A stretch of 64,000 nucleotides of DNA from Phycisphaeraceae bacterium. Its GTDB lineage: Bacteria; Planctomycetota; Phycisphaerae; Phycisphaerales; Phycisphaeraceae. The stretch covers positions 20,109 to 84,108 of the forward strand of contig NYZC01000403.1 in the NCBI GenBank assembly GCA_002686995.1. The letters are read 5' to 3'. Position numbers and translations under genes: made by a program. The notes below the pieces were generated by a model, which saw only the letters and a list, made by a program, of their open reading frames with translations, searched no databases and was not told where the DNA came from. Shown here piece by piece: positions 25,966 through 43,431 of this stretch; position 1 is the stretch's first letter, and every line of letters begins with the position of its first letter.

Positions 25966-28900
25966 TCAGGCGATGAGACCGAGGTTCGCGATGAAGCCCT
26001 CGATCGAGCTCACGCCACCCGGGTCGGCGATGACGTCGTCCTCGCTGAAGACCATCATGTCGCCCGTAGGCGAGTTCGTGCCGCCGTCGATGAAGTCGGA
26101 GCGCCGGCCGCCGTCGATCAGGTCGTCGCCGCCGAGACCGAAGATCGAGTCGGAAGCGTTTCCGCCGCGAAGCGCGTCGTTCAGGTTCGTGCCGACGATG
26201 GCCTCGAAGTTCCGGACGCTTTCGATCAGGAAGATGCCGGAAGGCGTGCTTCTCGCCATCTTCGCCGCGAGGTCGACGTAGACGCCGGTCGACGTCAGCA
26301 GGCTGAAGTCGATCGAGTCGCCCCTGCCGCCGCCGCCGGAGATCTTCGTGTTGGTCGTCGTCGGCCCGATGTCGACGATCTGGATGATGTCGTCGCCACC
26401 GCCACCGTCGATCTGGTTGCCGTCCGAGCCTTCGAAGTCGACCATGATCAGGTCGTTGCCCGAGCCGCCCTTGACGCGGTTCTTGTCGCCGTCGATCTCG
26501 ACGTCGATGTCGTCGTTGCCGGAACCGCCGTCGACGATGTTGTTGTCGCCTTCGATGTCGGCGTCGATGTCGTCATCGCCGGAGCCGCCGGCGATGCGAG
26601 ACCTGTCGATGTCGGTGTTGACGTTGATGTCGTCGTCACCACGGCCGCCGTCGACCCGGATGCGCTCGCCGTCACCGACGTTGATCACGTCATCGCCCCG
26701 GTCGCCCTTGGCGATGCTGCGATCGCCCTCAATCGTGAGGACGTCGTTGCCGTCCTTTCCGTTGAGGTTGTCGCGACCGCCGTTACCGTCGACGACGTTG
26801 TCCTGGCTGTCGCCCGTGAACCGGTCGTCACGCGGCGTCAGGATGAAGTCCGTGACACCGCTCACCTCCACCCTCGTACCGTCGGAGAGCGTGAGGCGTC
26901 CGGGTCGGTTCGGGTTCTTGCTCAGCGAGATGACCACGCCCCGGCTGGGACGTCTCGGATCCGCAGGATCGCCCGAGAGGTCCATCGTGCCGCCCGGAAT
27001 GTCGAGCGTGTCTCTGCCGGGACTCGAGTTCACCGTGAGGCCGGTGCCGGCGAGGATGTCGTCGAAAGGCGATCCCGTGACGCCGCCGACAGGACCGTTG
27101 AAGTCGAGCGTGCTGCCGCCCGACACCGGGCCGGGGCCAACGGTGTCGCCATCGAAGGTCACGCCGGACACGGAGTTCGAGAAGTCGACGAGGTTGTTGC
27201 CGCCGCTGTCGTTGATGACGTTGGCGTCCGTCCCGCCCGGCTCGATGATGTGCGTGTCGTCACCGAGGCCGGTGTTGATCGTGTCGCTGCCCGCCGAAGA
27301 CCGGATCGTGTTGTTGCCTTCGCCGGCGCCGATCAGGTTGTTGCCGGACGTGCCGGTGATGTTGTCGTCACCGCTGCCGGTGAAGAGGTTCTCAATCGAA
27401 TTCGGCGCCAGCGTGTTGTTGCCGATCTCGGCACTGTCGAACAGCGTGCCTGCCGCCAGGTCCGCCGTAATGGGCAGGGTGGTGAAGGCGGCGTCGATGT
27501 CGTCCGTGCCGGTGCCCCCGTCGATGTTGTCATCGCCGAGACCGGCCAGGAAGGTGTCGTTGCCGCCACCGCCGTCGAGGTCATCGTTGCCGTCGCCGCC
27601 GATGATGTCGTCGTTGCCGTCGCCGCCGTCGATCACGTCGTCTCCGCCGGCACCGTCGATGTTGTCATTACCGGGGCTGCCGGTCAGCGTGTCATTGCCG
27701 GGCCCGCCGGTGAGCGTGAGCCCGCCGCCTGCACCGGAACCGTCGATGTTGTCATCGCCGGAGCCGCCGATGATGTTCTGAATGTTGGAATGGGTGTAGT
27801 TGAAGGTGGTGCCCGTGGCGGTCGTCGCCGTCACGGTGACCGGATCCGTCTGGTTCGACATGTCGAGCGTGTTGCTGCCGCCGTCGCCGTCGAGCGTGTC
27901 GTTGCCGGTATTGCTGACGAAGAACGTGTTGTCGTTGGCATCGCCGGCAAGATTGTCGTCGCCGCTGCCGCCGGTCAGGTCCTCGAAGTTCGCCAGCTGG
28001 TCGACGCCGGGGCCGGCGCCGAGGCCGCTGCCGATGCCGGGCGCGATGCCGTCGAGATCGACGGTCACGCCGGTGGCATTGGACTCGTAGCTGGCAAGGT
28101 CGGTGCCGCTGCGACCGTCCATCGTGTCGCCGGCGACGTCATGGCCGCCGCCGTCGATCTTGTTGTCGCCGCCGTCACCGCTGAGGATGTCGTCCTGCGG
28201 GCTGCCGAGGATGTCCTCGATGTCCACGATCGCGATCGTCATGCCCGGCACCACCGTGCCCGGCCGGTTCGTGTTGGCCGTGCCCTCCCCCGCGTCCAGG
28301 TCGACCTGGACGCCGGTCGTGAAGCCGCTGTAGTCCACCTGGTCGGCGTCGCTGTCGCCGCCGACGATGCGCTCGATGTTAGTCAGGCCGTTGGCGTCAT
28401 CGGCATGGGTCACGCTGTTGCCGAGGCCGTCCGTCGCCGTGACGCTGTTGATACCGAAGTTGATCGCGGACGTCGCCGCGAAGTTCGTGAAGTCGTCGGC
28501 CGTCAGGCCCAGCAGGTCGAGATCGGCCTGCACGAGGTCCGTCGGAGCGAACAGGCCGAAGCTCATCGTGTCCTCGTCTCCAGCCTGGAACGACTCGGAG
28601 GCCTCGTCGACCACGATGTCGTTGCCGAAGCCGTCGGAGAAGAAGAAGTCGTCTTCGTCGGTGCCGCCCGTCAGGCTGTCGTCGCCGCCTCCGCCGATCA
28701 GCGTGTCCCGGCCGCCGTCGCCATTGAGCGTGTCGTTGCCGTCGGCGCCGAGCAGCAGGTCGGACCCGCCGCCGCCGAGCAGGGTGTCGTTCATGGGACC
28801 GCCGACGAGCGTGTCGGCGCCGAGACCGCCGGTCAGGGTGTAGGGGCCGCCCGTGCCGCCGTACAGAATGTCGGGGAACGCACTGCCGACCACGCCCTCC

Positions 28901-31900
28901 ACGTTCGCGTAGGTGTCGGTGCCGCCGGTGCCGTCCTCGGACGAACCGGCGTCCACGCGGACGCGGACGCCCGTGGGCGCTCCGGCGAAGCTGACCTGGT
29001 CGATGCCGTCACCACCGTCGATCTCGTCGTCACCGTCGTTGCCGCCGCCGCCGCCGAAGCCGCCGCCGGCAACCGTGTCGTTGGCGGCCTCGCCGAGCAG
29101 CGTGTCGTCGCCGAGCCCGCCGTTGATCGACTGGGCCTGGCCGTCGCCGCGAAGCGAGTCGCTGCCGTCACCGCCGATGATGTCACGAATGTTGTCGATG
29201 CCGCCGGATCGCACCAGGTCCACCGTCGTCACACCGATGCCAAGATCGCTGTCGAAGCTGGCGTCGCCGGTGGTCAGGTCGACCTGAACGTCGAACGCAG
29301 TCGTCGAGGGGAAGATGCCGGACGTGATCACGTCGGAGAAGTCGATCGTGTTGATGCCGCCGGCACCGTCGATCGATCCCGTGCCGCGTGCCAGCGGGTT
29401 GAGGATGCCCGACCCGTTGGGATTGTTCCGATGGAGCCACTCGAACACGTCGTTGGCCGTGCCGCCGGTGATGTTCTCGAGGTCGTCGCCGCCATGCGTG
29501 ATGGAGTCGCCGGCCGAGGTCGCGGTGACGCTCGCCATGGTGACCGTGATGGCGCTGTTGATCGCGCTCGGGTTGAACGCTCCGCCGAAATCGGGCGGAA
29601 GCGTCGGCCCGGCGAAGCCGTTGAAGGTCAGGGCGTCCTCGCCTTCGTCCTCGGCCTCTACGATCGTGTTGGCCGCGCCGAAGCCGCCATCGCTGGTCGA
29701 GTCGGTCACGACGTACAGGTCGTCGTCGCCGCCGCCGTTCAGCGTGTCGTTGCCGGCACCGGCCACGAGCGTGTCGTCGCCCTGGCCGCCTTCGAGCGTG
29801 TCACCGTTGGCGCCGACGCCGCGGGCGATCAGCAGATCGTTGCCCTGGTCACCGAAGAGGTTGTCCAGACCGCTGCCGCCGGTGTCGCCGGCGTCGAGCA
29901 CGTCGTCGTCATCGCCGCCGCGAAGGGTGTCGTCGTCATCGTCCGAGCCGCCGTGCAGGCTGTCATCGCCCTGCAGACCCTGGATCGAGTCGTCGCCGAC
30001 GAGACCGCGCAGGATGTTGGCGAACTCGTCACCGGTGATCACGTCGTTGTTCGGCGTGCCGGTTACGTTCTCGATGTTGTGCGGCACGTTGGCCGTCACG
30101 GTCGTGCGGTTGACAGGTGCAATGGTTCCGTCGTGCTGCGTCTGCAGCGTCGGGGTGGTGCTGAGGTCAGCGACCAGCGTGTCGAAGCCGGGACCCCCGC
30201 CCTGGAGGACGCGCGAACTGTCCAGCGTGTCGTCACCGCCGCCGGGCTGCTCGTCGACCGTGTCGATTTCGCCACCCGTCGTGATCGAGTCTGACTGGTA
30301 GGTGTCGTCGCCCGCGCCGCCGACCAGCAGGTCGTCGTCGGTGGCCAGCACGGCGATGCCGTTGCCGTTGAGCGTGTCGTTGCCGTCGAGACCCGTGAGG
30401 GTGTCGTCGCCGGCATTGCCGAGGAGGCTGTCGTCCGCCGTCGAGCCGGTGATGTCATCCGGACCGGGCGTGCCCACGACACCTTCGATGTTCGCGATGC
30501 TGTCGACGCCCTGATGCACGCCGGTGCCGAGGTTGATCACCTGGCCGGTGCTGCCATCGGGATCGACGTTGCGATAGTCGATGCTGTCGACCGTTCCGGC
30601 GGGGCTGCTGCCGCCGTCGAACGAGCCGAGACCGGCGGGCGCCTCGGTGCCGAACGGGATGGGCATGTCGGCGCCGTTGTCCGTGAAGCGGAAGAAGTCC
30701 GTGCCGCTGCCGGTCAGGATCGACTCGATGAAGTCGCCGGCCGCATTAAGGAATTCCGAGCCGTCGGTGACGTTGATGGACGAGAGCGTCACGACCAGGT
30801 CTTCGCTCAGTGCCGACATGTCGAGCACGTCAGCGGTGCCTTCGCCCGTCAACTCGGTGATGACGTCGCCGCCGCCAGCCGAGAAGTTGTTCTGCACGTA
30901 CTCGTACGTGTCGTTACCGGTGTTGCCGATCAGTGTGTCGTCGCCGTCGCGACCGGTGATCGTGTCATCGCCGGCGTTGCCGGTCAGCACGTTGGCGCCG
31001 TTGTCGCCGATGAGGATGTCGGCATCCGCACCGCCGATGGCGTTCTCCATGGTTCTGGTGGTCACGGCGCCCGTGATGGTGCCACCCGTGTCGGCCTGGC
31101 CGGAGCCGGTGAATGCAGCCGCAAAATCTTCGCCGGTGAAATCGACGGTCACGACCGTGCCGACGGCCTGGCCTGCGTAGTTCAGCGTGTCGCCGGCGCC
31201 GGTGTCGGCGCCGCCGGTGATGTCGAGCGGCGAGCTCTGGGTCGGCGTGAACGTATCGTCGCCGGCATTGCCGTCGACCGTGATGCCCGCGTTCGCCGCG
31301 ACGATCTCGATCGGAACCAGGCCGCCGACCGCGACGCGCGTCGTGCCCGGCGCGCCGTCGCTGATGCCGATGGCGTCGTCGCCACCCGTCGCCTCGACGA
31401 CCACGGCGTCGGTGCCGTCACCGGTGTCGAGCGTCAGGGTGGTGACGTTGAACTGCGTGATCTCGAAGTCGACTTCCTCCTCGAAGCCGTTGCCGGGAAC
31501 GCTGTCGGCATCGGTGTCGACATCCAGCGTGGAGGTGCCGGCGCTCGGGTCGGCCGGGGTAAAGACCGCGCTGTCGTCCGAGGACGTCAGGTTCACGACG
31601 ATGTCATCGGCATCGTTGTTGTCGGTATCGCCGCCGTCCAGGAAGAACTCCGTGACATCCGAGGTCGCGTCACCCACGCCGTTGACGGTGACCGTCTCGT
31701 CCGAATCTTCCTGGCCGTTGATCTCGACCTCTTCGATGCCCGTGAGGGCGATCGGACCGCCCACGACGCCCGTGATCTGGTCGGTCGTGAGATCCACGGT
31801 CACGCTGTCGTCCGGATCGAGATTGACCGTGATTCGATCGCTGGCGGTGGGCGGACCGCCGTCGAAGGTGATGCCACCGGTGAAGATCGCGAGATTGGTC

Positions 31901-34900
31901 CCGTCGATGGTGAGCGTGTCGTCCTCGCCGCCTGTCGCGCCGCCACCGAAGTCAAGGTTGTTGATCCCAACGAGCGTCACCTCGTCGCCGTCGAGCGTCA
32001 CGGTCGGGTCAGGTGCGGCGTTCGCGTCGATCGTCCAGTCGTCGTTGTCCGTGTCGTCGCCGACGAACTGCACCTGGTCGGTGCCGCCGTTGCCGTTGAT
32101 GGTCACGTCGTCGTCGAGCTGCGTGCTGTCGACGAGGACCACGTCGTCGCCGGCCGAGCCGTTGAGGGTGTCCTCACCGCCGCCGCCGTTGACGACGATG
32201 CCGGGCGCCAGCGCGAGCGTGTCGTCGCCGGTCGAGCCGATGACCGTTTCCATCACGCCGGTGACGGCGAGCGTGTCGCCGCCGTTGATGTTCTGAACCT
32301 GCCCGGCGGTCTGGCCGACGTCGAAGGTCACGCCCCCGCCGAAGAACTCGAAGCTCAGCGAGTCGTCGCCGCTCGAGTCGTTGATCACGTCGGCCGATCC
32401 CGGCTCCTCGAAGTACTGGTCGTTGCCGTCGCCGCCGTCCATCGAGTCGTCGCCGGCCAGACCCTGAAGCTGGTCGTTGCCGTCGCCGCCGATGAGGTCG
32501 TTGTCCGCGGCACTCCCCAACAGCACGTCGTCCAGCGTGGTGCCCGTGACGTTCTCGACGAGACCGTCGCCGGAAATGCTGTTGGTGACGTCGTTGCCGT
32601 CCGTGACGGTGCCGGCGTCGAGATCGACGGTCACGCCGGCCGTCGGCGTCCCGATACCGGTGTTGGTGGCCAGCGAGAAGTCGAGTGCGTCGTCCGTACC
32701 GCCGCCGCCGTTGACCGTGTTGACACCCCAGGCATCGCCGATGAACCGGAAGGTGTCGTCACCGGCGCTGCCGTTCAGCACGTTCGATTCGTTGTTTGCC
32801 GTGAAGTCGTCGTCGCCGTCGCCGCCGAACAGCTGCTGAATATTGGCGATGCCGCCCGCGGCGCCGCCGTTGACGTTGGTGGCCGAACCGTCGTTCAGGT
32901 TGACCGTCACGTCTGTCGTGAAGTTCGACGTCAGACCGTAGTCGCCGCCGTCGTAGCGCAGCTGGTTCGTGCCGGTGCCGCCGTCAATCGTGCCGTTGAG
33001 GAAGTCGCCGTCTTCGTCGAAGGCGATGATGTCGTTGAAGCTGAAGCCGACCTGCGTGTCGAGAATGATGTTCTCGACGTTGTCGTCGATGTGCTGCACG
33101 ATCGTCGTGGCGTTGGCGCCCGGCGTGCCGGGATCGCTGTCGACGGTGATCGAGCCGAGGATGACCTCGACCGCCTGGCCGATCGTGGACAAGTCGATCG
33201 TGTCGTTGCCCTCGCCCGTGCCTTCGTTGACGTCGTCGGTCGTCGCGGCGTCGGTGATAACGAAGGTGTCGTCGCCCGTGCCGCCGGTCAGGGCGTCGGC
33301 GCCCGCGAGGCCGCTCAGGGTGTCGTTGCCGCCCTGGCCGATGAGCGCGTTGACGCCACCGTCGCCGGTGAGCGTGTCGGCAAAGGCGCTGCCGGTCGCA
33401 TTTTCGAAGAGAATGATGCCGCCCGTGCCGGTGGCCGTCGGCGTCGGGACGACCGAGAGATCCACGGCGACCGCGGAGGCATAGTTGGTGTAGTTGATGG
33501 TATCGCTGCCGGCGTTGCCGGTGATGATTCCAGCGCCGCCGCCGAACACCGCCGCGCCGCTCAGGCTGACCAGGTCGTCGCCGCTGCCCAATCGCATCAC
33601 GAGGAACCCGTCGCCGGTGTGCGTGATCGTGTGAGTGGCGTCAGCGATCGTGAAGCTTGCCGTGATGTCGACCGTCAGGTTGTTGGTCGTCGCGGATAGA
33701 TCCACGACGTCGCCACCGGATCCGGAGATCACGTCGTTGCCGAGCGCCACGCCGGCCGGGTAGAGCAGTGTGTCGGTGCCGGCGCCACCGTTCAGCACGT
33801 CGTCGCCCTCGTTGCCCTGGATCGTGTCGTTGCCCACGCCGCCGGTCAGCGTGTCGGCCTGCGTGCCGCCCTCGAGCACCTCGAAGTTGAGGATCGACGA
33901 GACGATCGCCGTCAGGTCGGCCTTGGCCGCCGCGCCGCCGAGCGTCGCCGAGACGCCCTGCGTCGTGTAGTTGAAGGTCAGCGTATCGGACGTGACATGC
34001 CCGCCGCCGTCGATGACCGTGCCGGCGCCGCCGATCACCACGTTGTCCGCGACGTTGAACTGATCGTCGTCCGCGGTGCCGATGATGACCTCGACGTCGT
34101 TCGCCGCATGGGTGACCGTGTTGCCGCCCTGGGTCACCGTCACGGACGCGAAGTTGGCGGTGATGCCGCCGGCCGTCACGTTCGAGAAGTCCATCGTGTC
34201 GACGTCCGCGCCGACGGCCTCGGACACCGTGTCGGTGCCCCAGGCGTCGAGGAACACGAAGTTGTCGCTGCCGGCGCCGCCGTCCAGCGAGTCGTTGCCG
34301 GTTCCGCCGTCGATCGTGTCGTTGCCGCCCCCGCCAGCGAGCGTCTCGTCGGCCGCGCTGCCGGTCAGGCTGTCTGCACCGTCGCCGCCCGTCACGTTGA
34401 CGAACTCACCGCCGCCGAACGTCGAAAGCGTGATTCCCGCGGCGCTGATCGTGCCGGCGCCCAGGTCCACCGTGGCCGCGGCCGCGACACCGGCGAACGT
34501 CATGATGTTCGCCTGGCCGTTCGCCGCGTCGAGGATGCCGACGCTGTTGACGCCCTGGATGACGCCGCCGCCGCCTTCAGTGATTTCACCGCCGTTCGTA
34601 CCGGCGGCGTAGGTGATCACCACGCCGATGTCGTCCACTTCGAGCGTGTCGGCGCCGCCGCTGCCGATGATGCTGTCGGTGCCTTCGGCCGCGGCAATGT
34701 CATAGATGTCGGCACCGCCGCCGCCGGTGATCGTGTCGTTGCCCCCACCGGGAATGAACGTCTCGGCCGCGGAGGTGCCGACGAAGGTGTCGGCGGCGGC
34801 CGTGCCGATCGCGATGGTGAAGCCGCTGACCGACGTCGGGAAGTTCGGCGTCACGACGCCGGTCGCGAAGTTGACCGTCTCGGGGCCGGCCTCGCCGGAG

Positions 34901-36501
34901 AGGTCGACGGTGTTGGCCTGCGCCGGATTCACGTCCAGATCCGTCGCGCCGTTGATGCCCGTCACGGTGAATACACCGTCGTCCACGGTGTCGGCCGCGG
35001 AGTCGTAGGTCAGGTCGCGCGTGACGCCGGTCATGTTGACGATGTCGCCGGCGCCGGTCGTCAGCACGTCGTCGCCGGGGTTGGCGCCCTGAAAGATCAA
35101 TTCGTCCGCGTCGGCCTCACCGTCGATCGTGTCGGCGCCGTCGCCGCCCTCGATCGTGTCGGCCCCGGCGCCGCCGGCGATCGTGTCGTCGCCGTCACCG
35201 CCGCGGATGTCGTTCGCCGCGGTGCTGCCGGTCAGGTCGTCCGCGTTGGCCGAACCAATGATGTTCTGGAAGTTGTCGGCGTTCTCGGTGTTGCCGTCGC
35301 CGTCGTCGGTAATCTCGTTCGCGGCGGAAAGATCGACCGTGACCGCGGCGGAGCCGTTGGCCAGGCTCAGGGTGTTGGTGCCGGTGCCACCGTCGAGCGT
35401 GTCCGTGCCGTCGCCACCCTCGATCGTGTCGTCGCCACCGCCGCCGACGAGCGACTCGCCCGTGCCGTCGTCGTCGCCGCGGATGTCGTCATCGCCCGAG
35501 CCGCCGGTGATCGTGTCGAAGTTGTCGAGCGTGTCGGCGATCGAGTTGTCTAGGTTGTCGGTCAGGTCCAGGTTGAGGCCGGTGGTGTACGCAGTCGCGT
35601 CCAAGGTGTTGGCGCCGGCACCGCCGTCGAGCGTGCCCGTGCCATTGCCCAGCTCGAGCCCGTTGCCGATCGTCACCGTGTCGTTCGCGCTACCCAGCAG
35701 GACCGACTCGATGGTGTTCGCGGTGTTGGTGATGGTCTGCGCCGTCACGGTGTCCGTGATCACCAGGCCGCCGCCGGTCAGGCCGACGGTCGTCACGTTG
35801 GGCACGGCGGTCCCGGTGTACAGACCGGTGGCGCCGATCGTCGCGCCCTGCAGGTCGACCGTATCGGTCCCGCCGTCGTCGATGATCGTGTCGTTGCCGT
35901 CGCCCGCCTCGTAGAGGAACACGTCGTCGTTCAATCCCGGATCGAACGGCTCCGCGTCGCCGCGCAGCGTGTCGGTGCCGATGTGGCCGCCGAGCACGTC
36001 GTCACCGTCGCCGCCGATGATCGAGTCGTCGCCGACGCCGCCGATGATCGTGTCGTTGCCGTTGCCGCCTTCGATCGTGATGCCGTAGGCCACGCCGTCG
36101 CCGGGCGCAGCGGTGCCGACGTTCACGATGTTCGCGGCGGTGGTGAAGCTGTCGTCGTCGTCACCGAGCTGAACGAGGATCTCGTTGACGTTGTCGAACG
36201 TCGGGCCGGCGCCATTGAGAATGTCGCCCGCTCCGTCCGCGACCGTCACGCGACCGTCCGTGCCGTCACTCGAAAGCGCGACCGCGTTGGCCTCGTTCGC
36301 CTGGTCGATCAGCTCGAGCCGGAACCCGCCGCCGGGCAGCGGCACCAGCGTCGCGTCGAGCAGCACGCGCGGCTCGAGCGCTTCGACGGCGAAATCGCGC
36401 TGCGAAGGCACGAACTCGCTGCGCGTCCTGGCGCGACGGCGCGAACGCTGACGACGGTTGACTTCATGCTTCTGATGCCTCTTTTGGCGCCGCTTGGACA
36501 T
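25966..36501 (-). CDS. Giant RTX-type (haemolysin-type Ca2+-binding GGxGxD repeat) secreted protein/adhesin, 3,511 aa
   Basis: More than 100 GGxGxDx(L/I/F) nonapeptide units, e.g. GGNGNDTIIGGVGDDSIIGGDGDDVLGG. The protein is extremely Gly/Asp/Thr/Asn-rich and I saw no Cys. The N-terminus is highly basic, followed by ALEPRVLLDA. The C-terminus is an RTX block followed by an acidic tail. Confidence 0.9.
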   Translation of the reverse strand: MSKRRQKRHQKHEVNRRQRSRRRARTRSEFVPSQRDFAVEALEPRVLLDATLVPLPGGGFRLELIDQANEANAVALSSDGTDGRVTVADGAGDILNGAGPTFDNVNEILVQLGDDDDSFTTAANIVNVGTAAPGDGVAYGITIEGGNGNDTIIGGVGDDSIIGGDGDDVLGGHIGTDTLRGDAEPFDPGLNDDVFLYEAGDGNDTIIDDGGTDTVDLQGATIGATGLYTGTAVPNVTTVGLTGGGLVITDTVTAQTITNTANTIESVLLGSANDTVTIGNGLELGNGTGTLDGGAGANTLDATAYTTGLNLDLTDNLDNSIADTLDNFDTITGGSGDDDIRGDDDGTGESLVGGGGDDTIEGGDGTDTLDGGTGTNTLSLANGSAAVTVDLSAANEITDDGDGNTENADNFQNIIGSANADDLTGSTAANDIRGGDGDDTIAGGAGADTIEGGDGADTIDGEADADELIFQGANPGDDVLTTGAGDIVNMTGVTRDLTYDSAADTVDDGVFTVTGINGATDLDVNPAQANTVDLSGEAGPETVNFATGVVTPNFPTSVSGFTIAIGTAAADTFVGTSAAETFIPGGGNDTITGGGGADIYDIAAAEGTDSIIGSGGADTLEVDDIGVVITYAAGTNGGEITEGGGGVIQGVNSVGILDAANGQANIMTFAGVAAAATVDLGAGTISAAGITLSTFGGGEFVNVTGGDGADSLTGSAADETLAGGGGNDTIDGGTGNDSLDGGAGSDNFVFLDAWGTDTVSEAVGADVDTMDFSNVTAGGITANFASVTVTQGGNTVTHAANDVEVIIGTADDDQFNVADNVVIGGAGTVIDGGGHVTSDTLTFNYTTQGVSATLGGAAAKADLTAIVSSILNFEVLEGGTQADTLTGGVGNDTIQGNEGDDVLNGGAGTDTLLYPAGVALGNDVISGSGGDVVDLSATTNNLTVDITASFTIADATHTITHTGDGFLVMRLGSGDDLVSLSGAAVFGGGAGIITGNAGSDTINYTNYASAVAVDLSVVPTPTATGTGGIILFENATGSAFADTLTGDGGVNALIGQGGNDTLSGLAGADALTGGTGDDTFVITDAATTDDVNEGTGEGNDTIDLSTIGQAVEVILGSITVDSDPGTPGANATTIVQHIDDNVENIILDTQVGFSFNDIIAFDEDGDFLNGTIDGGTGTNQLRYDGGDYGLTSNFTTDVTVNLNDGSATNVNGGAAGGIANIQQLFGGDGDDDFTANNESNVLNGSAGDDTFRFIGDAWGVNTVNGGGGTDDALDFSLATNTGIGTPTAGVTVDLDAGTVTDGNDVTNSISGDGLVENVTGTTLDDVLLGSAADNDLIGGDGNDQLQGLAGDDSMDGGDGNDQYFEEPGSADVINDSSGDDSLSFEFFGGGVTFDVGQTAGQVQNINGGDTLAVTGVMETVIGSTGDDTLALAPGIVVNGGGGEDTLNGSAGDDVVLVDSTQLDDDVTINGNGGTDQVQFVGDDTDNDDWTIDANAAPDPTVTLDGDEVTLVGINNLDFGGGATGGEDDTLTIDGTNLAIFTGGITFDGGPPTASDRITVNLDPDDSVTVDLTTDQITGVVGGPIALTGIEEVEINGQEDSDETVTVNGVGDATSDVTEFFLDGGDTDNNDADDIVVNLTSSDDSAVFTPADPSAGTSTLDVDTDADSVPGNGFEEEVDFEITQFNVTTLTLDTGDGTDAVVVEATGGDDAIGISDGAPGTTRVAVGGLVPIEIVAANAGITVDGNAGDDTFTPTQSSPLDITGGADTGAGDTLNYAGQAVGTVVTVDFTGEDFAAAFTGSGQADTGGTITGAVTTRTMENAIGGADADILIGDNGANVLTGNAGDDTITGRDGDDTLIGNTGNDTYEYVQNNFSAGGGDVITELTGEGTADVLDMSALSEDLVVTLSSINVTDGSEFLNAAGDFIESILTGSGTDFFRFTDNGADMPIPFGTEAPAGLGSFDGGSSPAGTVDSIDYRNVDPDGSTGQVINLGTGVHQGVDSIANIEGVVGTPGPDDITGSTADDSLLGNAGDDTLTGLDGNDTLNGNGIAVLATDDDLLVGGAGDDTYQSDSITTGGEIDTVDEQPGGGDDTLDSSRVLQGGGPGFDTLVADLSTTPTLQTQHDGTIAPVNRTTVTANVPHNIENVTGTPNNDVITGDEFANILRGLVGDDSIQGLQGDDSLHGGSDDDDDTLRGGDDDDVLDAGDTGGSGLDNLFGDQGNDLLIARGVGANGDTLEGGQGDDTLVAGAGNDTLNGGGDDDLYVVTDSTSDGGFGAANTIVEAEDEGEDALTFNGFAGPTLPPDFGGAFNPSAINSAITVTMASVTATSAGDSITHGGDDLENITGGTANDVFEWLHRNNPNGSGILNPLARGTGSIDGAGGINTIDFSDVITSGIFPSTTAFDVQVDLTTGDASFDSDLGIGVTTVDLVRSGGIDNIRDIIGGDGSDSLRGDGQAQSINGGLGDDTLLGEAANDTVAGGGFGGGGGNDGDDEIDGGDGIDQVSFAGAPTGVRVRVDAGSSEDGTGGTDTYANVEGVVGSAFPDILYGGTGGPYTLTGGLGADTLVGGPMNDTLLGGGGSDLLLGADGNDTLNGDGGRDTLIGGGGDDSLTGGTDEDDFFFSDGFGNDIVVDEASESFQAGDEDTMSFGLFAPTDLVQADLDLLGLTADDFTNFAATSAINFGINSVTATDGLGNSVTHADDANGLTNIERIVGGDSDADQVDYSGFTTGVQVDLDAGEGTANTNRPGTVVPGMTIAIVDIEDILGSPQDDILSGDGGDNKIDGGGHDVAGDTMDGRSGTDLASYESNATGVTVDLDGIAPGIGSGLGAGPGVDQLANFEDLTGGSGDDNLAGDANDNTFFVSNTGNDTLDGDGGSNTLDMSNQTDPVTVTATTATGTTFNYTHSNIQNIIGGSGDDNIDGSGAGGGLTLTGGPGNDTLTGSPGNDNIDGAGGDDVIDGGDGNDDIIGGDGNDDLDGGGGNDTFLAGLGDDNIDGGTGTDDIDAAFTTLPITADLAAGTLFDSAEIGNNTLAPNSIENLFTGSGDDNITGTSGNNLIGAGEGNNTIRSSAGSDTINTGLGDDTHIIEPGGTDANVINDSGGNNLVDFSNSVSGVTFDGDTVGPGPVSGGSTLDFNGPVGGVTGSPFDDILAGTGLTVNSSPGRDTLDIPGGTMDLSGDPADPRRPSRGVVISLSKNPNRPGRLTLSDGTRVEVSGVTDFILTPRDDRFTGDSQDNVVDGNGGRDNLNGKDGNDVLTIEGDRSIAKGDRGDDVINVGDGERIRVDGGRGDDDINVNTDIDRSRIAGGSGDDDIDADIEGDNNIVDGGSGNDDIDVEIDGDKNRVKGGSGNDLIMVDFEGSDGNQIDGGGGDDIIQIVDIGPTTTNTKISGGGGRGDSIDFSLLTSTGVYVDLAAKMARSTPSGIFLIESVRNFEAIVGTNLNDALRGGNASDSIFGLGGDDLIDGGRRSDFIDGGTNSPTGDMMVFSEDDVIADPGGVSSIEGFIANLGLIA

Positions 36502-36946: not shown

Positions 36947-39094
36947 CTAACCGAGCGGCATCGTCCGGTCCAGCCAGTCGTCTCGCCGAACCAGCGAGCG
37001 CCGGATGTCGCCGGCCCGCGTCCGAATCCGCCGACGCGCCCATCCGATCAGAGCCCGCGAGACGATTCGCGGCGATGAAACACGGCCGGACTCGGCCTTG
37101 GCGCCGGCAGCATACATGCGGCGCAAACACTTTACAACCCAGGATGCCTCCCATGTGTAAAAAAGGTCCTCCAAACTTATAAAAAGCTGACAGGAATTCG
37201 ACGGCCCGTTCCTGGCGGCACGACCGATAAGTCGCTCGGCGTCACGCACCGCCGAGGGTTCGTGCCCGACGACGATGACCTGCACCGATGCGTCGATCGC
37301 GTCTCGCTCATCGGCCGCCGCGCCGAGGCGCCCGCCCTGCCCGCCGACCACCGTGATCGCGCCGGGCACTGCGAGCCGATCCAGCGCCGACGCTTCGCGG
37401 TCGGGCTGCACGCCGGTCACCTGCCCGGCGTCCATCCCGCGCTCTGTCAGCAGGTCGCCGATGCTACGCACGCCGGCAGCCGAGCCCGTCACGACCAGGA
37501 CCGGCATCCCTTCCCGATAACACCTCTCGGCCTCGTCCGCGACAAGGCCGTGCATGCGCGCCGTGGCGGCGACGAGGCGCGGGGTCGCCGCGAACGTGCG
37601 GTCCCGTCTTGCCGTAAACCCCCGAAGAATAAGACCATACATCTGCGATAACTCCCGCCGACGGAGGCGGCACGACGTGGAGGACACGCCGCAAAGTACG
37701 CGGTAGAGGCGGAAGAACCGCTGGAGGCTCAGGCTTGCCAGCGTCCTGCGCTCCGCCGTGATCTCGAGCCCCTCCTTCGCCTCGATCGCCTGCTCGACGC
37801 CGAACTGACGTCGACGGTCGGGCAGATAGGTCTGGCCCGTGGACGGGTCGATCATGATCACGCGATCCTCGATGACGTCGTAGTCGCGTCCCCGCTCGTA
37901 GCAGATGGAGGCGGCGAGAGCCCGCTCGACCACCTCGCGGCGCCGGCGGTCGCCGTGCCAGAACGCCGTGTCGATGCCGGCCTCGTCGGGCTCGTCGATC
38001 TCGGCCAGGCGAATCCACCCCTCGTCCGTCAGCCGGACGATCCGGCGATCGGAGTGCACTATATAGTCCACGTCCGCCACCAGGTCCCCGGCCAGTCGGA
38101 CCGCCCGGCGCAGGACGTCCGGCGCGGTATGGGGCCCGGGGACGGTGGAAATGACCAGCGGGGAGATCGCATCGTCCAGCAGCGTGCCGTCGATGTCGTC
38201 CACGATCGCGGCGTGCAGGCCCGGCACGGTGATGCGCTCCGTGGCGGCCGCGGATGCCGCGACCGGGGTCATGTGCTCGATGACCGCCTCCCGCGCCGGG
38301 CCGAGACGAATCTGGTCGCGCAGCCAGTCGCCGATCAGTTGGCGCGCCGCCACGTACACCACCGGGTGGCGGTAGGCCGCAAGCTTCCGGTCCCGGGGCT
38401 GGCCCGCCTCGACGTGGGCCGCCGCAAGCCCGGCCCGGCGCAACAGCGGCGCCATCGCGCCGCCGTCCCGCGCCGCCTGGAAATCATTCGCCACCACCAC
38501 GTGCACCGATGGATGCGACCACCCGGCAAGCACGGCGGCGAGCGCGACGACCGGAGCCCGTGGCGTCGCGCCCGCCAGCGCCGCGGCCTGCCCGTGAAAA
38601 AGAGCCAGCGCCGCCGCCACCTGCGTGTCGTGAGGTCTCTGACCGATCTCTCTCGCGGCCATCTCCCGCACGCACGCCATCGCCTCGGTCAGCGACGACG
38701 GCGACACGGGTCGGCGGGCGAATGCTTCGCGCAGCCGCGCGGCGCGCTCGTCGAGCTCGGGCTCGGACAGGTCCTGATATTGCGGGCCGAGCCGGTCGAC
38801 CTGCGCGGCGAGCTGCCGGCAGCGCCGAACGCGGCCCGGAACCTGTCGCATTCGCGTCACCCATCTTCCCACCAGACCGTCGAGACCCCATGCCACCGGC
38901 GCGCGGCGACGCCGGGTCGTAAAAGACCACCACATGGCGTCGTAGCGTCCGATTGCCTGCGTCATCAGCCTGCTCCCGCCTTGCCGGTGCGTCGCCCGGG
39001 CGGCGGCCCCGGAATTGTTAATTAATGCACAGGATACAGGAACCGGGCCGCGATGCAAGTCCGGCGCGGGAAGGAGACGGAGGATTCGGGGCAT
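36947..39094 (-). CDS. SecA-like protein with degenerate ATPase motifs
   Basis: Collinear with SecA across the DEAD motor and preprotein-binding regions (LSEPELDERAARLREAF; VHVVVANDFQAARD; IVDDIDGTLLDDAISPLVIS; QFGVEQAIEAKEGLEITAERRTLASLSLQRFFRLY; PVLVVTGS). Walker A, Walker B and motif III are not conserved. An alternative start is the ATG at 38965. Confidence 0.8.
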   Translation of the reverse strand: MPRILRLLPAPDLHRGPVPVSCALINNSGAAARATHRQGGSRLMTQAIGRYDAMWWSFTTRRRRAPVAWGLDGLVGRWVTRMRQVPGRVRRCRQLAAQVDRLGPQYQDLSEPELDERAARLREAFARRPVSPSSLTEAMACVREMAAREIGQRPHDTQVAAALALFHGQAAALAGATPRAPVVALAAVLAGWSHPSVHVVVANDFQAARDGGAMAPLLRRAGLAAAHVEAGQPRDRKLAAYRHPVVYVAARQLIGDWLRDQIRLGPAREAVIEHMTPVAASAAATERITVPGLHAAIVDDIDGTLLDDAISPLVISTVPGPHTAPDVLRRAVRLAGDLVADVDYIVHSDRRIVRLTDEGWIRLAEIDEPDEAGIDTAFWHGDRRRREVVERALAASICYERGRDYDVIEDRVIMIDPSTGQTYLPDRRRQFGVEQAIEAKEGLEITAERRTLASLSLQRFFRLYRVLCGVSSTSCRLRRRELSQMYGLILRGFTARRDRTFAATPRLVAATARMHGLVADEAERCYREGMPVLVVTGSAAGVRSIGDLLTERGMDAGQVTGVQPDREASALDRLAVPGAITVVGGQGGRLGAAADERDAIDASVQVIVVGHEPSAVRDAERLIGRAARNGPSNSCQLFISLEDLFYTWEASWVVKCLRRMYAAGAKAESGRVSSPRIVSRALIGWARRRIRTRAGDIRRSLVRRDDWLDRTMPLG

Positions 39095-39153: not shown

Positions 39154-41289
39154 TCACGCCGTATCGACCGCCTGCAGGAACCGGCGCCACCAGCGTGCGG
39201 CGAGGCTCGTCCGCCCGAACGTGAAGCGGACCTTCGCCCGCTGCCCGGGCTGAACCGCGACGTCGTCCGGCAGGCTGATGCGGACCTCGAACACGGATTC
39301 CGCCGCCTCGAAGCCCCGCGCGTCGGTGCGGAGCGAGCCGCCGCCGTAGTAGCCAAACATCCGGTGACGAAGCTGCTGCGTGCCGGAGGGGCTCACGCGC
39401 TCGACCTTTCCGTCCAGAACCTGGTCGATCCGCCCGATCGGTCGCAGCTGCACCGCCGGGGCGGCGCTCTCGCCGAACAGCAGCGAATTGTGCTTCTGGT
39501 CGATGATCGCGATCGCCACGAGCCGCTCGTTCCCGGCGTGGACGCGCCCAAGCACCTCGCCCCGCTCGAGGTACTGGCCCTGGAGCACGCTGAGCGCCGG
39601 GGCGACGAGCTGACCGGCGCCCGGGCTCGTCAGCGTCAGATCCTGAATCCTGCGGTCCACCTCCGCGAGCTGGCCTTCCAGCGACGCAAGACGGGCGAGC
39701 GCCTTGTCCTTTTCGTCATGAAAGCCCTCGCCGCCGGCGGCGTCCGCGAGCAGCTTCTCGTGGACCATCTTCGCGACGAGCCGCTCCCGCTCCAGCGCAA
39801 GGTCGCGGTTGGTCGCCTCGAGAATGACCTGGTCCGCGTCGACCGGCTGCCCGTCGTCCAGCGCCACGCGCTCGACGAAGCCGTCGACGGACATGACGAG
39901 CTCCATCCAGTCCTCCGGCTCGATCACGGCGTCGACGTACGCGTGACGCCCGACCGGAAGAAGCCCCACGACCGCGACGACGCCCGCCACGGCGCCGCAC
40001 GTCGACGCCCAGGCACGACCGCGCCGACCATGCAGCATCGGGCTCACCGCGAGGAACCGCGTCAGCTTCGCGAGTGGCACGATCACCCAGGTCAGCAGCA
40101 GGATCGTCACGAGCAGGACGCCGAGCCCGAAGAACAGGCGCGACACGAACCACGCGATCGCGACCATGATGAACGCGCGATAGGTCCAGGCCGAGACCGC
40201 ATAGGTCAGCAGCCAGGACCGCTCGGTGCGGCTGTGGGCCACGGGGCGCAGGTCGCGCAGACCGTAGAAACATCGCTGGAGGACCTGCTGGAGCTGCGCG
40301 TTGGCGTTCTTCAGCAGGTTGGGAATGTCCAGCAGGTCGGTCAGCACGTAGTAGCCGTCGAAGCGGAGCAGCGGGTTGGCGTTGAACAGCAGCGTCGCGA
40401 CGCCCGACACGAAGATGGTCCGATGGGCCAGCTCGTTCACGACGCCGGGCGCCGTGCCCGCCCAGACGAACACCGCCAGCGCGGCGACCGCGGTCTCGAC
40501 GATGATCCCCGCCAGGCCGACGAGCGCCCGCTGCAACCGGCTCTCGAGCCCCCAGCTGCTCGTCGCATCGCAATACGGCACCGGCGCGAACACCAGCAGC
40601 ATCACGCCCATCTCGTGCACCTGCCCGCCGAACCGCCGGCACATCAGGCCGTGCCCGAACTCGTGGACCACCTTGATGAGAACGAACAGCACGCCGAGCC
40701 AAAGCACGTTGCCCGGCCGGATCATCAGCGTGGTTTGCTCCCAGAGCGTCGACCAGCGCGGCGCCAGCCGGACCAGGGCCGCCAGCAGCAACGCGATCCA
40801 GGCCAGCAGCCCCCACCGGCTCAGCAGCGGACGGACCACCGGCAGCAGCGCATCGATCGCCGCCGCGGGGTCGAACAGCGGCACCTTGACGAACAGGAAG
40901 CTCGACCACTGCTTCCGGCGCATCACCGACCGCCGGCGCTGCATGCGCTTGAACAGCTGCGCGGCGTCGGTCGTCCCGTCGACGGTCACGAGGCTGGTCT
41001 GGTAGAGCTGGCTGATCAGGGCGAACACCTCGCCCTGCGTCGGCGCGCGGTCGCCGAACTGCTCCATGCAGAGCGTCCACGCCTGCTCGACCGTGCGCCG
41101 CCCGTCGAACAGGGCGACGAGGTGGTAGGTCACCGGATCGAGGCGATAGAACTGGTTGGCGGCCGGGTCGGAGAGGACGTAGCCGCGGCGGCGGCGGAAG
41201 TGCCGGCGCCGCACGACGACGGAGCTGCGCAGCCGCACGCGCAACGACGCGATCCGGTCCCATTCATGGCTGTGGGTCGCACGTTCCAT
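39154..41289 (-). CDS. M50 (site-2-protease family) zinc metalloprotease fused to a C-terminal HlyD-like periplasmic adaptor, with a PqqD/RRE-like N-terminal domain
   Basis: HEFGH (HExxH, nt 40651-40665) sits in a polytopic membrane core, with a later NPLLRFDGYY motif. The C-terminal about 250 aa are HlyD-like (coiled coil plus beta-barrel). N-terminal residues about 35-100 read YVLSDPAANQFYRLDPVTYHLVALFDGRRTVEQAW...EVFALISQL. Confidence 0.85.
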   Translation of the reverse strand: MERATHSHEWDRIASLRVRLRSSVVVRRRHFRRRRGYVLSDPAANQFYRLDPVTYHLVALFDGRRTVEQAWTLCMEQFGDRAPTQGEVFALISQLYQTSLVTVDGTTDAAQLFKRMQRRRSVMRRKQWSSFLFVKVPLFDPAAAIDALLPVVRPLLSRWGLLAWIALLLAALVRLAPRWSTLWEQTTLMIRPGNVLWLGVLFVLIKVVHEFGHGLMCRRFGGQVHEMGVMLLVFAPVPYCDATSSWGLESRLQRALVGLAGIIVETAVAALAVFVWAGTAPGVVNELAHRTIFVSGVATLLFNANPLLRFDGYYVLTDLLDIPNLLKNANAQLQQVLQRCFYGLRDLRPVAHSRTERSWLLTYAVSAWTYRAFIMVAIAWFVSRLFFGLGVLLVTILLLTWVIVPLAKLTRFLAVSPMLHGRRGRAWASTCGAVAGVVAVVGLLPVGRHAYVDAVIEPEDWMELVMSVDGFVERVALDDGQPVDADQVILEATNRDLALERERLVAKMVHEKLLADAAGGEGFHDEKDKALARLASLEGQLAEVDRRIQDLTLTSPGAGQLVAPALSVLQGQYLERGEVLGRVHAGNERLVAIAIIDQKHNSLLFGESAAPAVQLRPIGRIDQVLDGKVERVSPSGTQQLRHRMFGYYGGGSLRTDARGFEAAESVFEVRISLPDDVAVQPGQRAKVRFTFGRTSLAARWWRRFLQAVDTA

Positions 41290-41295
41290 CCGCAG

Positions 41296-43182
41296 CTACC
41301 ACCAGAGGGCCAGGCGCAGGAAGTCGACGAGCTTGTGGGTCATGATCCAGATGACGCGGCGCGACGCGACGTCGATCTTCGCCACGCCCTCGAAGCCCGG
41401 GCGCATCCAGTCCTCCTCGCGCTCCAGCTCGCAGTAGACCGGGAAGAAGGTTCCGCCCTCGTGAGCGACGCCCACGGGCACCACGCGCGTCACCGTGAAG
41501 TTCACGGTGACCGACGGGTTGCCTCGGGCGGCGAGTGCGCCCGTGCCGCCGAGACGCACCTGGTCGATATCGCGCTCGTCGACCCGGATCATCGCCCGCA
41601 GCAGCGGACGGCCGTCCTCGCTGCCGTGCAGCGGCGCGACCTCGAACAGCGTCTGGCCCAGCTCGACCCGCACGCCCTTGCGCTCCTGCCAGTCGCCCGT
41701 CACGACCACGCCGTCCTCGACGGCCACGATGTGCGCGTCGGCGATCTGCCGGGCGTAGAGATCGCGCTCGACCTCGTACACGCGCATCATCGCCTTGTAA
41801 CGCTCGGCGTCGTCGGGCGATCCGCCCAGGGAGCGCCGGTGATCGATGATCGCCACGGCCAGCTGGCTCTCGGCGCCGTCCCGCATCAGCTCCAGCGGCC
41901 GCGCATCCATGCGCACCAGCGGATCGCCGGCCTTCACCGGGTCGCCGTTGCGGGCGAACACCTCCTCGATGTGCCCGGTGTAAGGCGACGCGTAGACCCG
42001 CTTCTCGCGCGCCTCGAAGACGAACGGCGCCTCGACTCGGTAGTTCCATTTCACGAAGCACGACGCGATCAGCAGCACGCTCACGGTGAGCGCGACCAGC
42101 TTCAAGCCGACGTGCTCGGGACCGATGACGCGCCCCGCGAGCGTGCGCAGGTCCTGCCAGAGCTGGACCGCGGCGGGGCGGTCTCCGCGATGCCGGTCCG
42201 CCAGCGCGGGCGCGACCAGGTCGGCGATCACCTGGAACTGCGTGACGTCCGAGCCTTCGAACGGCCGGCTGCGGGGGCGCTCCGCGGTCAGCACCCCCCC
42301 GATCTCGTCGCCGTGACGAAGCGGCACGGACACGACGCCCTCCTGCTCGGTCGCCAGCTCGTGATGACAACGGCTGACCACCTGCTGCAGCCACTGGTCT
42401 TCGCCCTGGAAGTGATCGGCCGGCGCCGCCACGGCCCGGCCCTGGTCCATGCACTCCTCCATCGCCGACGCGATGGCCTCGCTCAGCTCCTGGCGCCGAT
42501 CGACGTTGTCCGTGTCGCTCATCGCCACGAGCCGGATCGAGCTGCCGCGCGCCCACCCGATCGCGACGCGCGACGCGTTCAGCTCGACGGACAGGGCATT
42601 GCACACCGCCATGCACGACTCGTGAAACCGGCCCGCCTGCTGCGCGGCGGTGAGCACGCTGAGCGCGCGGCGGGCGCCGGCGTTCTCGCGCAGCTGGCGC
42701 CGAAGACCCCGGGAGGAAAGGTGCAGCTTGTAGAGGCGGGCCGCCCACTGCAGGTGCGCGAGGAAGGGCTGAATCCGCTCCTGGTCCTGGTCAGGGGCCA
42801 GGACGACCGCGATGCCGTCGGTCGCGGTTTCGGACTCGAGCGGCGTGCAGATCGCGTGATAGACGCTGTTGCCCATCGCGATGCGGTAGACGCTGAGCTG
42901 CCCGGCCTTCTCGCACCGCTGCACGCAGTCGCGCAGGATCTCCACGCGGTCGGGCTCGACCTGCACGTGCCGACCGGGCGCCATGGGATAGACGGTGACG
43001 AGGCGCGACGGCTGGTCCTCGCGAAGCACGAACACGGCGCCGGAGACGCCGCCGACCAGCTTCGCCATCAGTTCGATGAGCAGCGTGAGAAACGGCAGGT
43101 CCTGGCCGGCCGCCGCCTCGACCTGGGCCGCAAGCTGCTGAAGCTGATCGTTGGTCACCTTGGTTGCCGTCGCCGGAGGCAT
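41296..43182 (-). CDS. Tandem-GAF-domain protein fused to an HlyD-family membrane-fusion (periplasmic adaptor) domain
   Basis: Two GAF-like cytoplasmic modules, a single TM helix (LKLVALTVSVLLIASCFV), then HlyD-type lipoyl and beta-barrel segments (YASPYTGHIEEVFARNGDPVKAGDPLVRMD). The stop lies 6 nt before the next gene's start. The start is set at the ATG at 43182; the track ORF extends to 43272, into a repeat. Confidence 0.8.
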   Translation of the reverse strand: MPPATATKVTNDQLQQLAAQVEAAAGQDLPFLTLLIELMAKLVGGVSGAVFVLREDQPSRLVTVYPMAPGRHVQVEPDRVEILRDCVQRCEKAGQLSVYRIAMGNSVYHAICTPLESETATDGIAVVLAPDQDQERIQPFLAHLQWAARLYKLHLSSRGLRRQLRENAGARRALSVLTAAQQAGRFHESCMAVCNALSVELNASRVAIGWARGSSIRLVAMSDTDNVDRRQELSEAIASAMEECMDQGRAVAAPADHFQGEDQWLQQVVSRCHHELATEQEGVVSVPLRHGDEIGGVLTAERPRSRPFEGSDVTQFQVIADLVAPALADRHRGDRPAAVQLWQDLRTLAGRVIGPEHVGLKLVALTVSVLLIASCFVKWNYRVEAPFVFEAREKRVYASPYTGHIEEVFARNGDPVKAGDPLVRMDARPLELMRDGAESQLAVAIIDHRRSLGGSPDDAERYKAMMRVYEVERDLYARQIADAHIVAVEDGVVVTGDWQERKGVRVELGQTLFEVAPLHGSEDGRPLLRAMIRVDERDIDQVRLGGTGALAARGNPSVTVNFTVTRVVPVGVAHEGGTFFPVYCELEREEDWMRPGFEGVAKIDVASRRVIWIMTHKLVDFLRLALWW

Positions 43183-43262
43183 GAATCGACAAGAATAACA
43201 TGCGGGGCCGGGGGCCGGGTATCGGGTTCCGGGGCGCGGCGTTGCGATGCCGCCGTCATAGC

Positions 43263-43316
43263 GCAGCCGCACGTTCGACCCGTGGGCTGACGCTGGCTGA
43301 CGCCCACGGTACGCAG
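43263..43316. repeat. REP-like family 2 copy (GGCTGACGCC / CCCRCGGGT units)
   Basis: GCAGCCGCACGTTCGACCCGTGGGCTGACGCTGGCTGACGCCCACGGTACGCAGCG is nearly identical to the reverse complement of 51665-51716. Confidence 0.75.
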
Positions 43317-43431
43317 CGTCTCGGGGTCCGAGGTCCCGCCCGGAGCCGGGGGATTGGTGGTTCCCGATCCGTTATCCGATATTGGTTGTTTGCGCCGTCC
43401 TTCCGGAACCCGAACCCCGGAACCCGAACCC

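Follow-up and report, generated by a model that had tools for sequence, protein, structure and literature searches.

Gene content of the locus and domain architecture of P0001

We analyzed a 64,000-nt stretch of contig NYZC01000403.1 from a Phycisphaeraceae bacterium (hereafter the window), focusing on a minus-strand gene, P0001. Its product joins three parts: a PqqD-type recognition element of the kind that binds leaders of RiPPs (peptides that are made on ribosomes and modified after translation), hereafter RRE; an M50 site-2-protease membrane core; and an HlyD-like adaptor. Four minus-strand genes follow one another here, with P0001 in second place; they encode a GAF-HlyD adaptor, P0001 itself, a SecA-like protein and a 3,511-aa RTX protein. 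We argue that P0001 probably recognizes and trims an N-terminal leader, LEPR-XLL, shared by very large proteins such as this one, as part of a dedicated envelope-spanning system. The features of P0001, with the evidence for each, are as follows.

39154..41289, minus strand: P0001, a gene for an RRE-M50-membrane fusion protein (MFP) fusion of 711 aa; open reading frame (ORF) uninterrupted, AlphaFold2 (AF2) model with mean pLDDT 88.7
40978..41241, minus strand: PqqD/RRE-type winged-helix domain, predicted cytoplasmic, residues ~17-104; Pfam PqqD, AF2 and Foldseek
39958..40899, minus strand: M50 site-2-protease membrane core, residues ~131-444, with seven predicted transmembrane helices; Pfam Peptidase_M50, NF041824 and hydropathy
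40651..40665, minus strand: HEFGH zinc-binding/catalytic motif, H209 E210 H213 (residues 209-213); invariant in 52 homologs
40354..40383, minus strand: NxxPxxxxDG motif, N303 P306 D311 G312, the second M50 signature with the third zinc ligand; invariant in 52 homologs
39157..39957, minus strand: membrane-fusion (HlyD/MacA-like) domain, predicted periplasmic, residues 445-711; Pfam HlyD_3 and HlyD_D23, PDB profile and Foldseek

The family set used throughout comprises 52 P0001 homologs of 34-56% identity. In P0001 itself, HlyD_D23 matches residues 463-637 and HlyD_3 matches residues 553-641 with 24.0 bits, which exceeds its gathering score of 22.2. Across the family, Peptidase_M50 is matched in 51/52 members, HlyD_3 in 41/52 and PqqD in 36/52 (E ≤ 0.01; best 5.6e-8). 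Moreover, a paralog of P0001 on contig C446 of the same genome matches PqqD with 24.0 bits, above the gathering score of 23.4. Judged from these profile matches, the three-part architecture is a trait of the whole family and no chance match in a single protein. Both HExxH and NxxPxxxxDG are invariant across the 52 homologs, and the P0001 protease is therefore expected to be active.

Predicted structure and membrane topology

The full-length AF2 model was built from the 52-sequence alignment. At its N-terminus, three strands (residues 25-31, 34-41 and 46-50) are followed by three helices (52-59, 67-81 and 85-97), an order that in the model is the winged-helix topology of RRE/PqqD domains. A separate model of the isolated N-terminus has a pLDDT of 83 overall and above 90 for residues 11-100. 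In a Foldseek search with this N-terminal model, the best matches included two stand-alone leader-bound RREs, TbiB1 (5v1u and 5v1v; target-normalized TM-score 0.65-0.69) and the lasso B1 protein 6jx3_B (TM-score 0.75, root-mean-square deviation 2.9 A); the RRE domains of TruD, MibB, CteB and MadB were matched as well. The modeled N-terminus thus passes the fold test, a result that by itself is no proof of homology. When the N-terminal sequence profile was searched against the PDB, the sole matches were the PqqD entries 3g2b (E = 0.033) and 5sxy (E = 0.16).

In solved RRE-leader complexes, the third strand and the third helix form the leader-binding groove. Among the 52 homologs, the residues of the P0001 RRE that are invariant or nearly so fall into two groups: N45, F47, R49 and L50 are on the third strand, whereas P83, Q85, L91 and Q94 are at or on the third helix. 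In the model, these conserved residues cluster in the predicted canonical leader groove.

The membrane core is helical in the model and contains a re-entrant hairpin (residues 227-240) typical of site-2 proteases. The last transmembrane helix (residues 423-443) is followed by a lipoyl/barrel domain that includes a short hairpin of coiled coil at residues 495-549, and the C-terminal 270 residues match MacA, AcrA and MexA by Foldseek at E ~1e-13. The full-length profile retrieved only adaptor proteins from the PDB (EmrA and MacA, E = 1e-10), together with a marginal match to the site-2 protease MJ0392. As modeled, the C-terminal domain is a membrane fusion protein (HlyD/MFP) fold.

Hydropathy analysis gives seven transmembrane helices in P0001, with 26 Lys and Arg residues within the first 157 residues and alternating charges in the loops. 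HExxH lies at the predicted cytoplasmic end of the second transmembrane helix and NxxPxxxxDG at that of the fourth. The positive-inside rule would thus place the RRE and both zinc-ligand motifs in the cytoplasm and the adaptor domain in the periplasm.

These results agree with much of a prediction made earlier from the sequence of the window alone (hereafter the original prediction). It had described an M50 protease fused to an HlyD adaptor with a PqqD/RRE-like N-terminus, and all three parts are recovered by Pfam, by family-wide matches and by AF2 and Foldseek. The HEFGH motif falls exactly where it had been placed, and in the AF2 model the multi-helix membrane core is followed by an HlyD-like coiled coil and barrel. 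The winged-helix fold, which had been chosen beforehand as the test of the RRE assignment, is present in the AF2 model and leads Foldseek to known RREs.

A conserved cassette of adaptors and a SecA-like protein

The genes that flank P0001 and the candidate cargo are listed below.

41296..43272, minus strand: GAF-HlyD adaptor gene, 6 nt upstream of the P0001 gene; Pfam GAF and HlyD_3
36947..39094, minus strand: truncated SecA-like gene; Pfam SecA_DEAD and PP_bind, ATPase motifs degenerate
25966..36501, minus strand: candidate cargo, a 3,511-aa Cys-free RTX-repeat protein with 47 RTX nonapeptides
36331..36393, minus strand: LEPR-XLL leader element of the cargo, residues 37-57 (LEPRVLL at nt 36358-36378); NF012209

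To examine synteny, we searched 85 fetched loci from about ten phyla by tblastn. Of 86 loci, 83 have a GAF-HlyD gene upstream of the M50 gene and 72 a SecA-like gene downstream of it, with exceptions mostly at contig ends; GAF-HlyD, M50-HlyD and SecA-like genes occur in that order in about 70/85 loci. In relatives, the set is extended by a third adaptor, about 300 aa long, and by a TolC-like outer-membrane efflux protein (OEP). The OEP is not present in the window cassette and is present in a Nitrospira relative (L026; E = 1e-44). Neither the window cassette nor any relative examined was found to have an ABC (ATP-binding cassette) transporter partner, and the window cassette contains no ABC, resistance-nodulation-division (RND) or major facilitator superfamily (MFS) pump.

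The SecA-like protein of the closest relative (L003) is similarly degenerate to that of the window, and those of L004, L005 and the C446 paralog are intact. In most cassettes, the SecA-like ATPase is intact and has a preprotein-binding domain.

A cassette of SecA_DEAD, Peptidase_M50-HlyD, GAF-HlyD and HlyD genes has been described bioinformatically (Kamneva, Poudel and Ward 2015; PMC4452313). The window locus has the gene set and order of this secondary-SecA cassette and is a member of it. The same study reported weak M50 and HlyD similarity and a GAF domain, and considered that the pore might be formed by the M50 protein; neither a PqqD/RRE domain nor a substrate nor a LEPR motif is named there (PMC4452313).

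Association of the cassette with LEPR-XLL leaders

The N-terminus of the candidate cargo consists of a polybasic stretch followed by F-A-V-E-A-L-E-P-R-V-L-L, and matches NF012209, the LEPR-XLL model, with 25-30 bits (cut-off 17). A giant gene with this leader adjoins the cassette in the window and likewise in L003, L004 and L005, whose proteases are 37-54% identical, and this holds for all close relatives that were examined. At least 13 further loci bear giant genes with the same leader beside the cassette, and the leader consensus is F-x-h-E-x-L-E-P-R-x-L-L-S-A-D.

The link is also evident when whole genomes are considered. In five non-planctomycete genomes, 7/8 LEPR-XLL matches flank the cassette. 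The single LEPR-XLL match of the genome adjoins it in each of Marinobacter suaedae, an Opitutales metagenome-assembled genome (MAG) and a Limisphaerales MAG, as does the stronger of two matches in a Chthoniobacteraceae MAG. All three LEPR-XLL genes of the Nitrospira MAG (L026, 375346-412354) lie back to back immediately upstream of GAF-HlyD, as open frames of 2,948, 4,548 and 1,574 aa. Behind these giants the order is GAF-HlyD, M50-HlyD, SecA-like, HlyD (the third adaptor) and TolC-like OEP, which makes this locus the most complete example. Five further genomes with a cassette lacking the leader within its 10-kb flanks each have 1-3 LEPR-XLL genes of 1,000-9,000 aa. Where coordinates allow a comparison, in Motiliproteus and probably in Puniceibacterium, a giant gene ends just upstream of the cassette and starts more than 10 kb off.

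We then sampled 302 genomes for co-occurrence of LEPR-XLL matches and the protease family.

Order around Marinobacter: 151 genomes; 19 LEPR-XLL-positive; 41 protease-positive; LEPR-XLL-positive genomes with the protease, 19/19
The window's own phylum: 151 genomes; 18 LEPR-XLL-positive; 43 protease-positive; LEPR-XLL-positive genomes with the protease, 18/18

All 37/37 LEPR-XLL-positive genomes carry the protease family, and a LEPR-XLL match occurs in 0/218 protease-negative genomes. Comparative genomics thus strongly supports the N-terminus of the RTX protein as the putative substrate of P0001.

A distant protease subfamily, scoring about 300-390 bits to the family profile, pairs, where partnered, with the leader A-L-E-P-R-x-L-L-D-A-A-A-V. 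The subfamily and this leader variant are found together at L093-L096 (genomes G092, G043, G067 and G031). The pairing of a distant protease with a distinct leader may reflect co-variation of receptor and leader.

The genome of the window has two cassettes and 26 LEPR-XLL ORFs, nearly all of them Cys-free (0.0-0.5% Cys), acidic and poor in Lys. RTX nonapeptides are carried by about 5/26 and are absent from at least 20/26; these proteins are therefore not generally classical type I substrates.

The original prediction had suggested coupled cleavage and export, with either a small peptide or the basic N-terminal part of the RTX protein as the substrate. It is the latter possibility that comparative genomics upholds, and binding, cleavage and export of this region would be the activities to expect of P0001. 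The former gained no support: the search for short leader-bearing ORFs near the gene that had been recommended found none conserved in the intergenic DNA. This includes the 445 nt that separate the SecA-like gene from the giant gene, where the alignment with L003 and L004 is confined to the ribosome-binding site and start of the latter. A small-peptide substrate was rejected on this ground. No function unrelated to peptides was found to be assigned to the P0001 family.

Relationship to known RRE-fused leader peptidases

The NCBIfam model NF041824 (daptide_HExxH) aligns to P0001 residues 37-407, spanning both the RRE and the protease core, with E = 4e-51. With 174 bits, however, the alignment falls short of the equivalog cut-off of 300, and no decarboxylase, aminotransferase or precursor genes of a daptide context were found near P0001. 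By these profile scores and gene context, P0001 is a homolog of the daptide intramembrane metalloprotease and not a member of that family. No RiPP tailoring enzymes were found in the cassette.

RRE-fused site-2 proteases have been known since 2023. One of them, the RRE-dependent intramembrane peptidase MpaP of the daptide pathway, removes a leader with the conserved motif ELExMEAP (Ren et al. 2023; PMC10036551). P0001 resembles MpaP in its N-terminal RRE fused to an intramembrane M50 protease, and the leader of MpaP carries an acidic E-x-h-E-(A)-P motif. The YydH/LiaK epipeptide proteases (NF058609) are likewise among the nearest characterized relatives of P0001. Unlike MpaP, P0001 adds a predicted periplasmic adaptor domain of about 270 aa, and its linked substrates are thousands of residues long, whereas the peptides of the daptide system have about 40 aa.

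A proposed leader-recognition model and its alternatives

We propose that P0001 is the inner-membrane subunit which recognizes the substrate and trims its leader in an envelope-spanning system dedicated to LEPR-XLL proteins, a reading to which we assign a probability of roughly 0.6. Starting from the observed domain architecture, predicted fold, invariant catalytic motifs, synteny and genome-wide LEPR-XLL link, we infer leader binding, cleavage, topology, export, energy source and channel along the following lines. The cytoplasmic RRE would capture the conserved leader element, probably as an extra strand laid against the third strand and third helix in the style of RiPP RREs. On the cytoplasmic side of the membrane, the M50 active site would then remove the leader or cut inside it. 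The adaptor domain of P0001 and its GAF-HlyD paralog may form a periplasmic conduit for the giant Cys-free cargo, which in other genomes would be joined by the third adaptor and the TolC-like channel. The SecA-like partner might handle the unfolded cargo; the ATPase motifs are gone from the window copy, and elsewhere in the genome there is a paralogous cassette that is intact.

A broader version of this proposal is that the RRE is the signal receptor of a new ABC-less trans-envelope pathway which recognizes, trims and exports the largest bacterial proteins via LEPR-XLL in about ten phyla. It would consist of the RRE-M50-adaptor fusion, two more adaptors (one of them the GAF-adaptor), a TolC-like channel and a SecA-like motor, with cargo of 1,000 to more than 14,000 aa. 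We advance it tentatively, as something a little short of an even bet. To our knowledge, RREs have so far been found only as leader receptors of small RiPP peptides.

Several observations weigh against the leader-recognition proposal. On the side of the domain assignments, the Pfam match of P0001 residues 37-100 to PqqD (PF05402; E = 2.9e-4) has 21.5 bits against a gathering score of 23.4, and that of residues 200-276 to Peptidase_M50 (E = 7e-6) has 25.9 bits against 27.2. The Foldseek E-values of the RRE model are modest (1e-3 to 1e-1, none below 1e-3); the top match, GdmN, is not a known or annotated RRE, and NO66, which is no RRE either, is also matched. On the side of export, the cassette has no obvious channel-forming transporter, and a SecA-like energy source at this locus is put in doubt by the window copy, in which the Walker A motif GEGKT is changed to GATPRA and DEVD to DDID. 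As to the link with the leader, the co-occurrence is significant (P = 2e-24, Fisher's exact test), a value overstated by the relatedness of the sampled genomes, and 47/84 protease-positive genomes have no LEPR match, most of them with members of the distant subfamily or fragmented assemblies. Finally, the ELExMEAP motif of daptide leaders resembles the ExLEPR core of the LEPR-XLL leader by eye only; at E ≤ 10, LEPR leaders match NF012209 alone in NCBIfam and no precursor model of daptides or other RiPPs.

The main rival explanation, which we regard as unlikely, is that the cassette controls the giant protein, and that a classical type I system (ABC/HlyD/TolC) exports the giant via a C-terminal signal. 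The M50-adaptor protein and the GAF sensor would then anchor, release or quality-control the giant by an N-terminal cut, as LapD/LapG do on LapA adhesins. The 47 RTX nonapeptides of the window cargo, the lack of an ABC, RND or MFS pump in the cassette, a SecA-like protein that by its motifs is ATPase-dead in the window and the GAF domain of the partner adaptor are all consistent with such a role. Furthermore, PAS-GGDEF-EAL genes, whose products act on cyclic di-GMP (c-di-GMP), adjoin the cassette in two gammaproteobacterial loci (L054, 19450-22109; L074, 13263-16496). Taken with the partner adaptor's GAF domain, these c-di-GMP genes hint at control by a nucleotide second messenger as in LapD/LapG. 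However, RTX repeats are absent from most LEPR-XLL ORFs of the window's genome, and the RRE and active site of P0001 are predicted to be cytoplasmic, whereas LapG is periplasmic. The intact SecA-like ATPase with a preprotein-binding domain in most cassettes, and the TolC-like OEP and third adaptor that some cassettes have of their own, also speak against this rival.

As in type I systems (HlyB-HlyD-TolC; LapB-LapC-LapE with LapG/LapD), there are MFP-type adaptors in the cassette and a TolC-like OEP in its relatives, and LEPR-XLL cargo is, like type I cargo, giant, acidic, Cys-free and sometimes equipped with RTX repeats. Unlike type I systems, the cassette has a SecA-like protein instead of an ABC transporter, and the signal of its cargo is N-terminal and not C-terminal. 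The coupling of leader cleavage to export that we propose is shared with peptidase-containing ABC transporters, which use a C39 cysteine protease, whereas an RRE-guided M50 metalloprotease would act here.

A second alternative is that the winged helix serves as a dimerization or regulatory module that binds no peptide, and that P0001 carries out regulated intramembrane proteolysis of a membrane protein unrelated to the leader. Winged-helix folds are common, and the weak Foldseek E-values and the matches to GdmN and NO66 would fit such a module. It is nevertheless quite improbable, given that the N-terminal sequence profile matches only PqqD in the PDB, that Pfam PqqD is found in 36 of the 52 members, that the conserved residues lie on the canonical leader-binding strand and helix, and that the whole RRE and M50 module aligns to a family of RRE-dependent leader peptidases.

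Very improbable is a RiPP-like system in which the RRE-M50 part matures a small leader-bearing peptide, the adaptor exports that peptide and the giant is merely a neighbor, an idea suggested by the small peptides on which the closest characterized relatives act (daptide MpaP and YydH/LiaK; PMC10036551) and by family members with neither a SecA-like gene nor a giant neighbor, and opposed by the lack of any short ORF that is conserved within the 445 nt of intergenic DNA or shared with L003/L004, by the lack of RiPP tailoring enzymes in the cassette and by a genome-wide partner that is a LEPR-XLL leader on proteins of 1,000-14,000 aa. One of the family members without SecA-like gene and giant neighbor, L001 (7103-14206), is accompanied instead by one additional small adaptor and an FtsX permease of the MacB type.

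Relation to earlier work and significance

The fusion itself is visible in Pfam annotations, and the cassette was published in 2015. In the literature searched, no paper combining M50, HlyD and PqqD was found, and LEPR-XLL was mentioned only twice, in passing. An N-terminal planctomycete motif is said to have perhaps been noted already by Studholme, Fuerst and Bateman in 2004; a paper that cites theirs is silent on such a motif. The same searches found no work on the cassette newer than that of Kamneva, Poudel and Ward (2015; PMC4452313), and no processing or export partner attached to LEPR-XLL (NF012209). Neither the recognition of an RRE in the cassette nor the link of the cassette to LEPR-XLL giants is in print in this literature.

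If the leader-recognition proposal is true, it supplies both a receptor and a processing enzyme for the orphan LEPR-XLL signal, which is found on hundreds of giant surface proteins of the Planctomycetota, Verrucomicrobiota, Nitrospirota and Proteobacteria, and it supplies a cargo for a cassette that has lacked a known role since 2015. It would also mean that protein secretion has taken over leader recognition in the style of RiPPs. With its small soluble domain and a peptide of about 20 residues, the proposal offers a directly testable handle that could help to explain how bacteria export their largest proteins when no classical ABC-driven type I system is used.

Additional observations at the locus and in the same genome

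The ORF upstream of the cassette in the window (43372-44418, minus strand) was considered as a further member and rejected, as it has no Pfam or NCBIfam match and is not conserved in other loci. The second cassette of the genome, on contig C446 (L086, 1288-8115), consists of GAF-HlyD, RRE-M50-HlyD and a SecA-like gene with intact ATPase motifs. Divergent from it, a minus-strand ORF (2-937) with the LEPR-like start L-E-S-R-L-L-L runs off the start of the contig, and it probably represents a giant gene that was split in the assembly.

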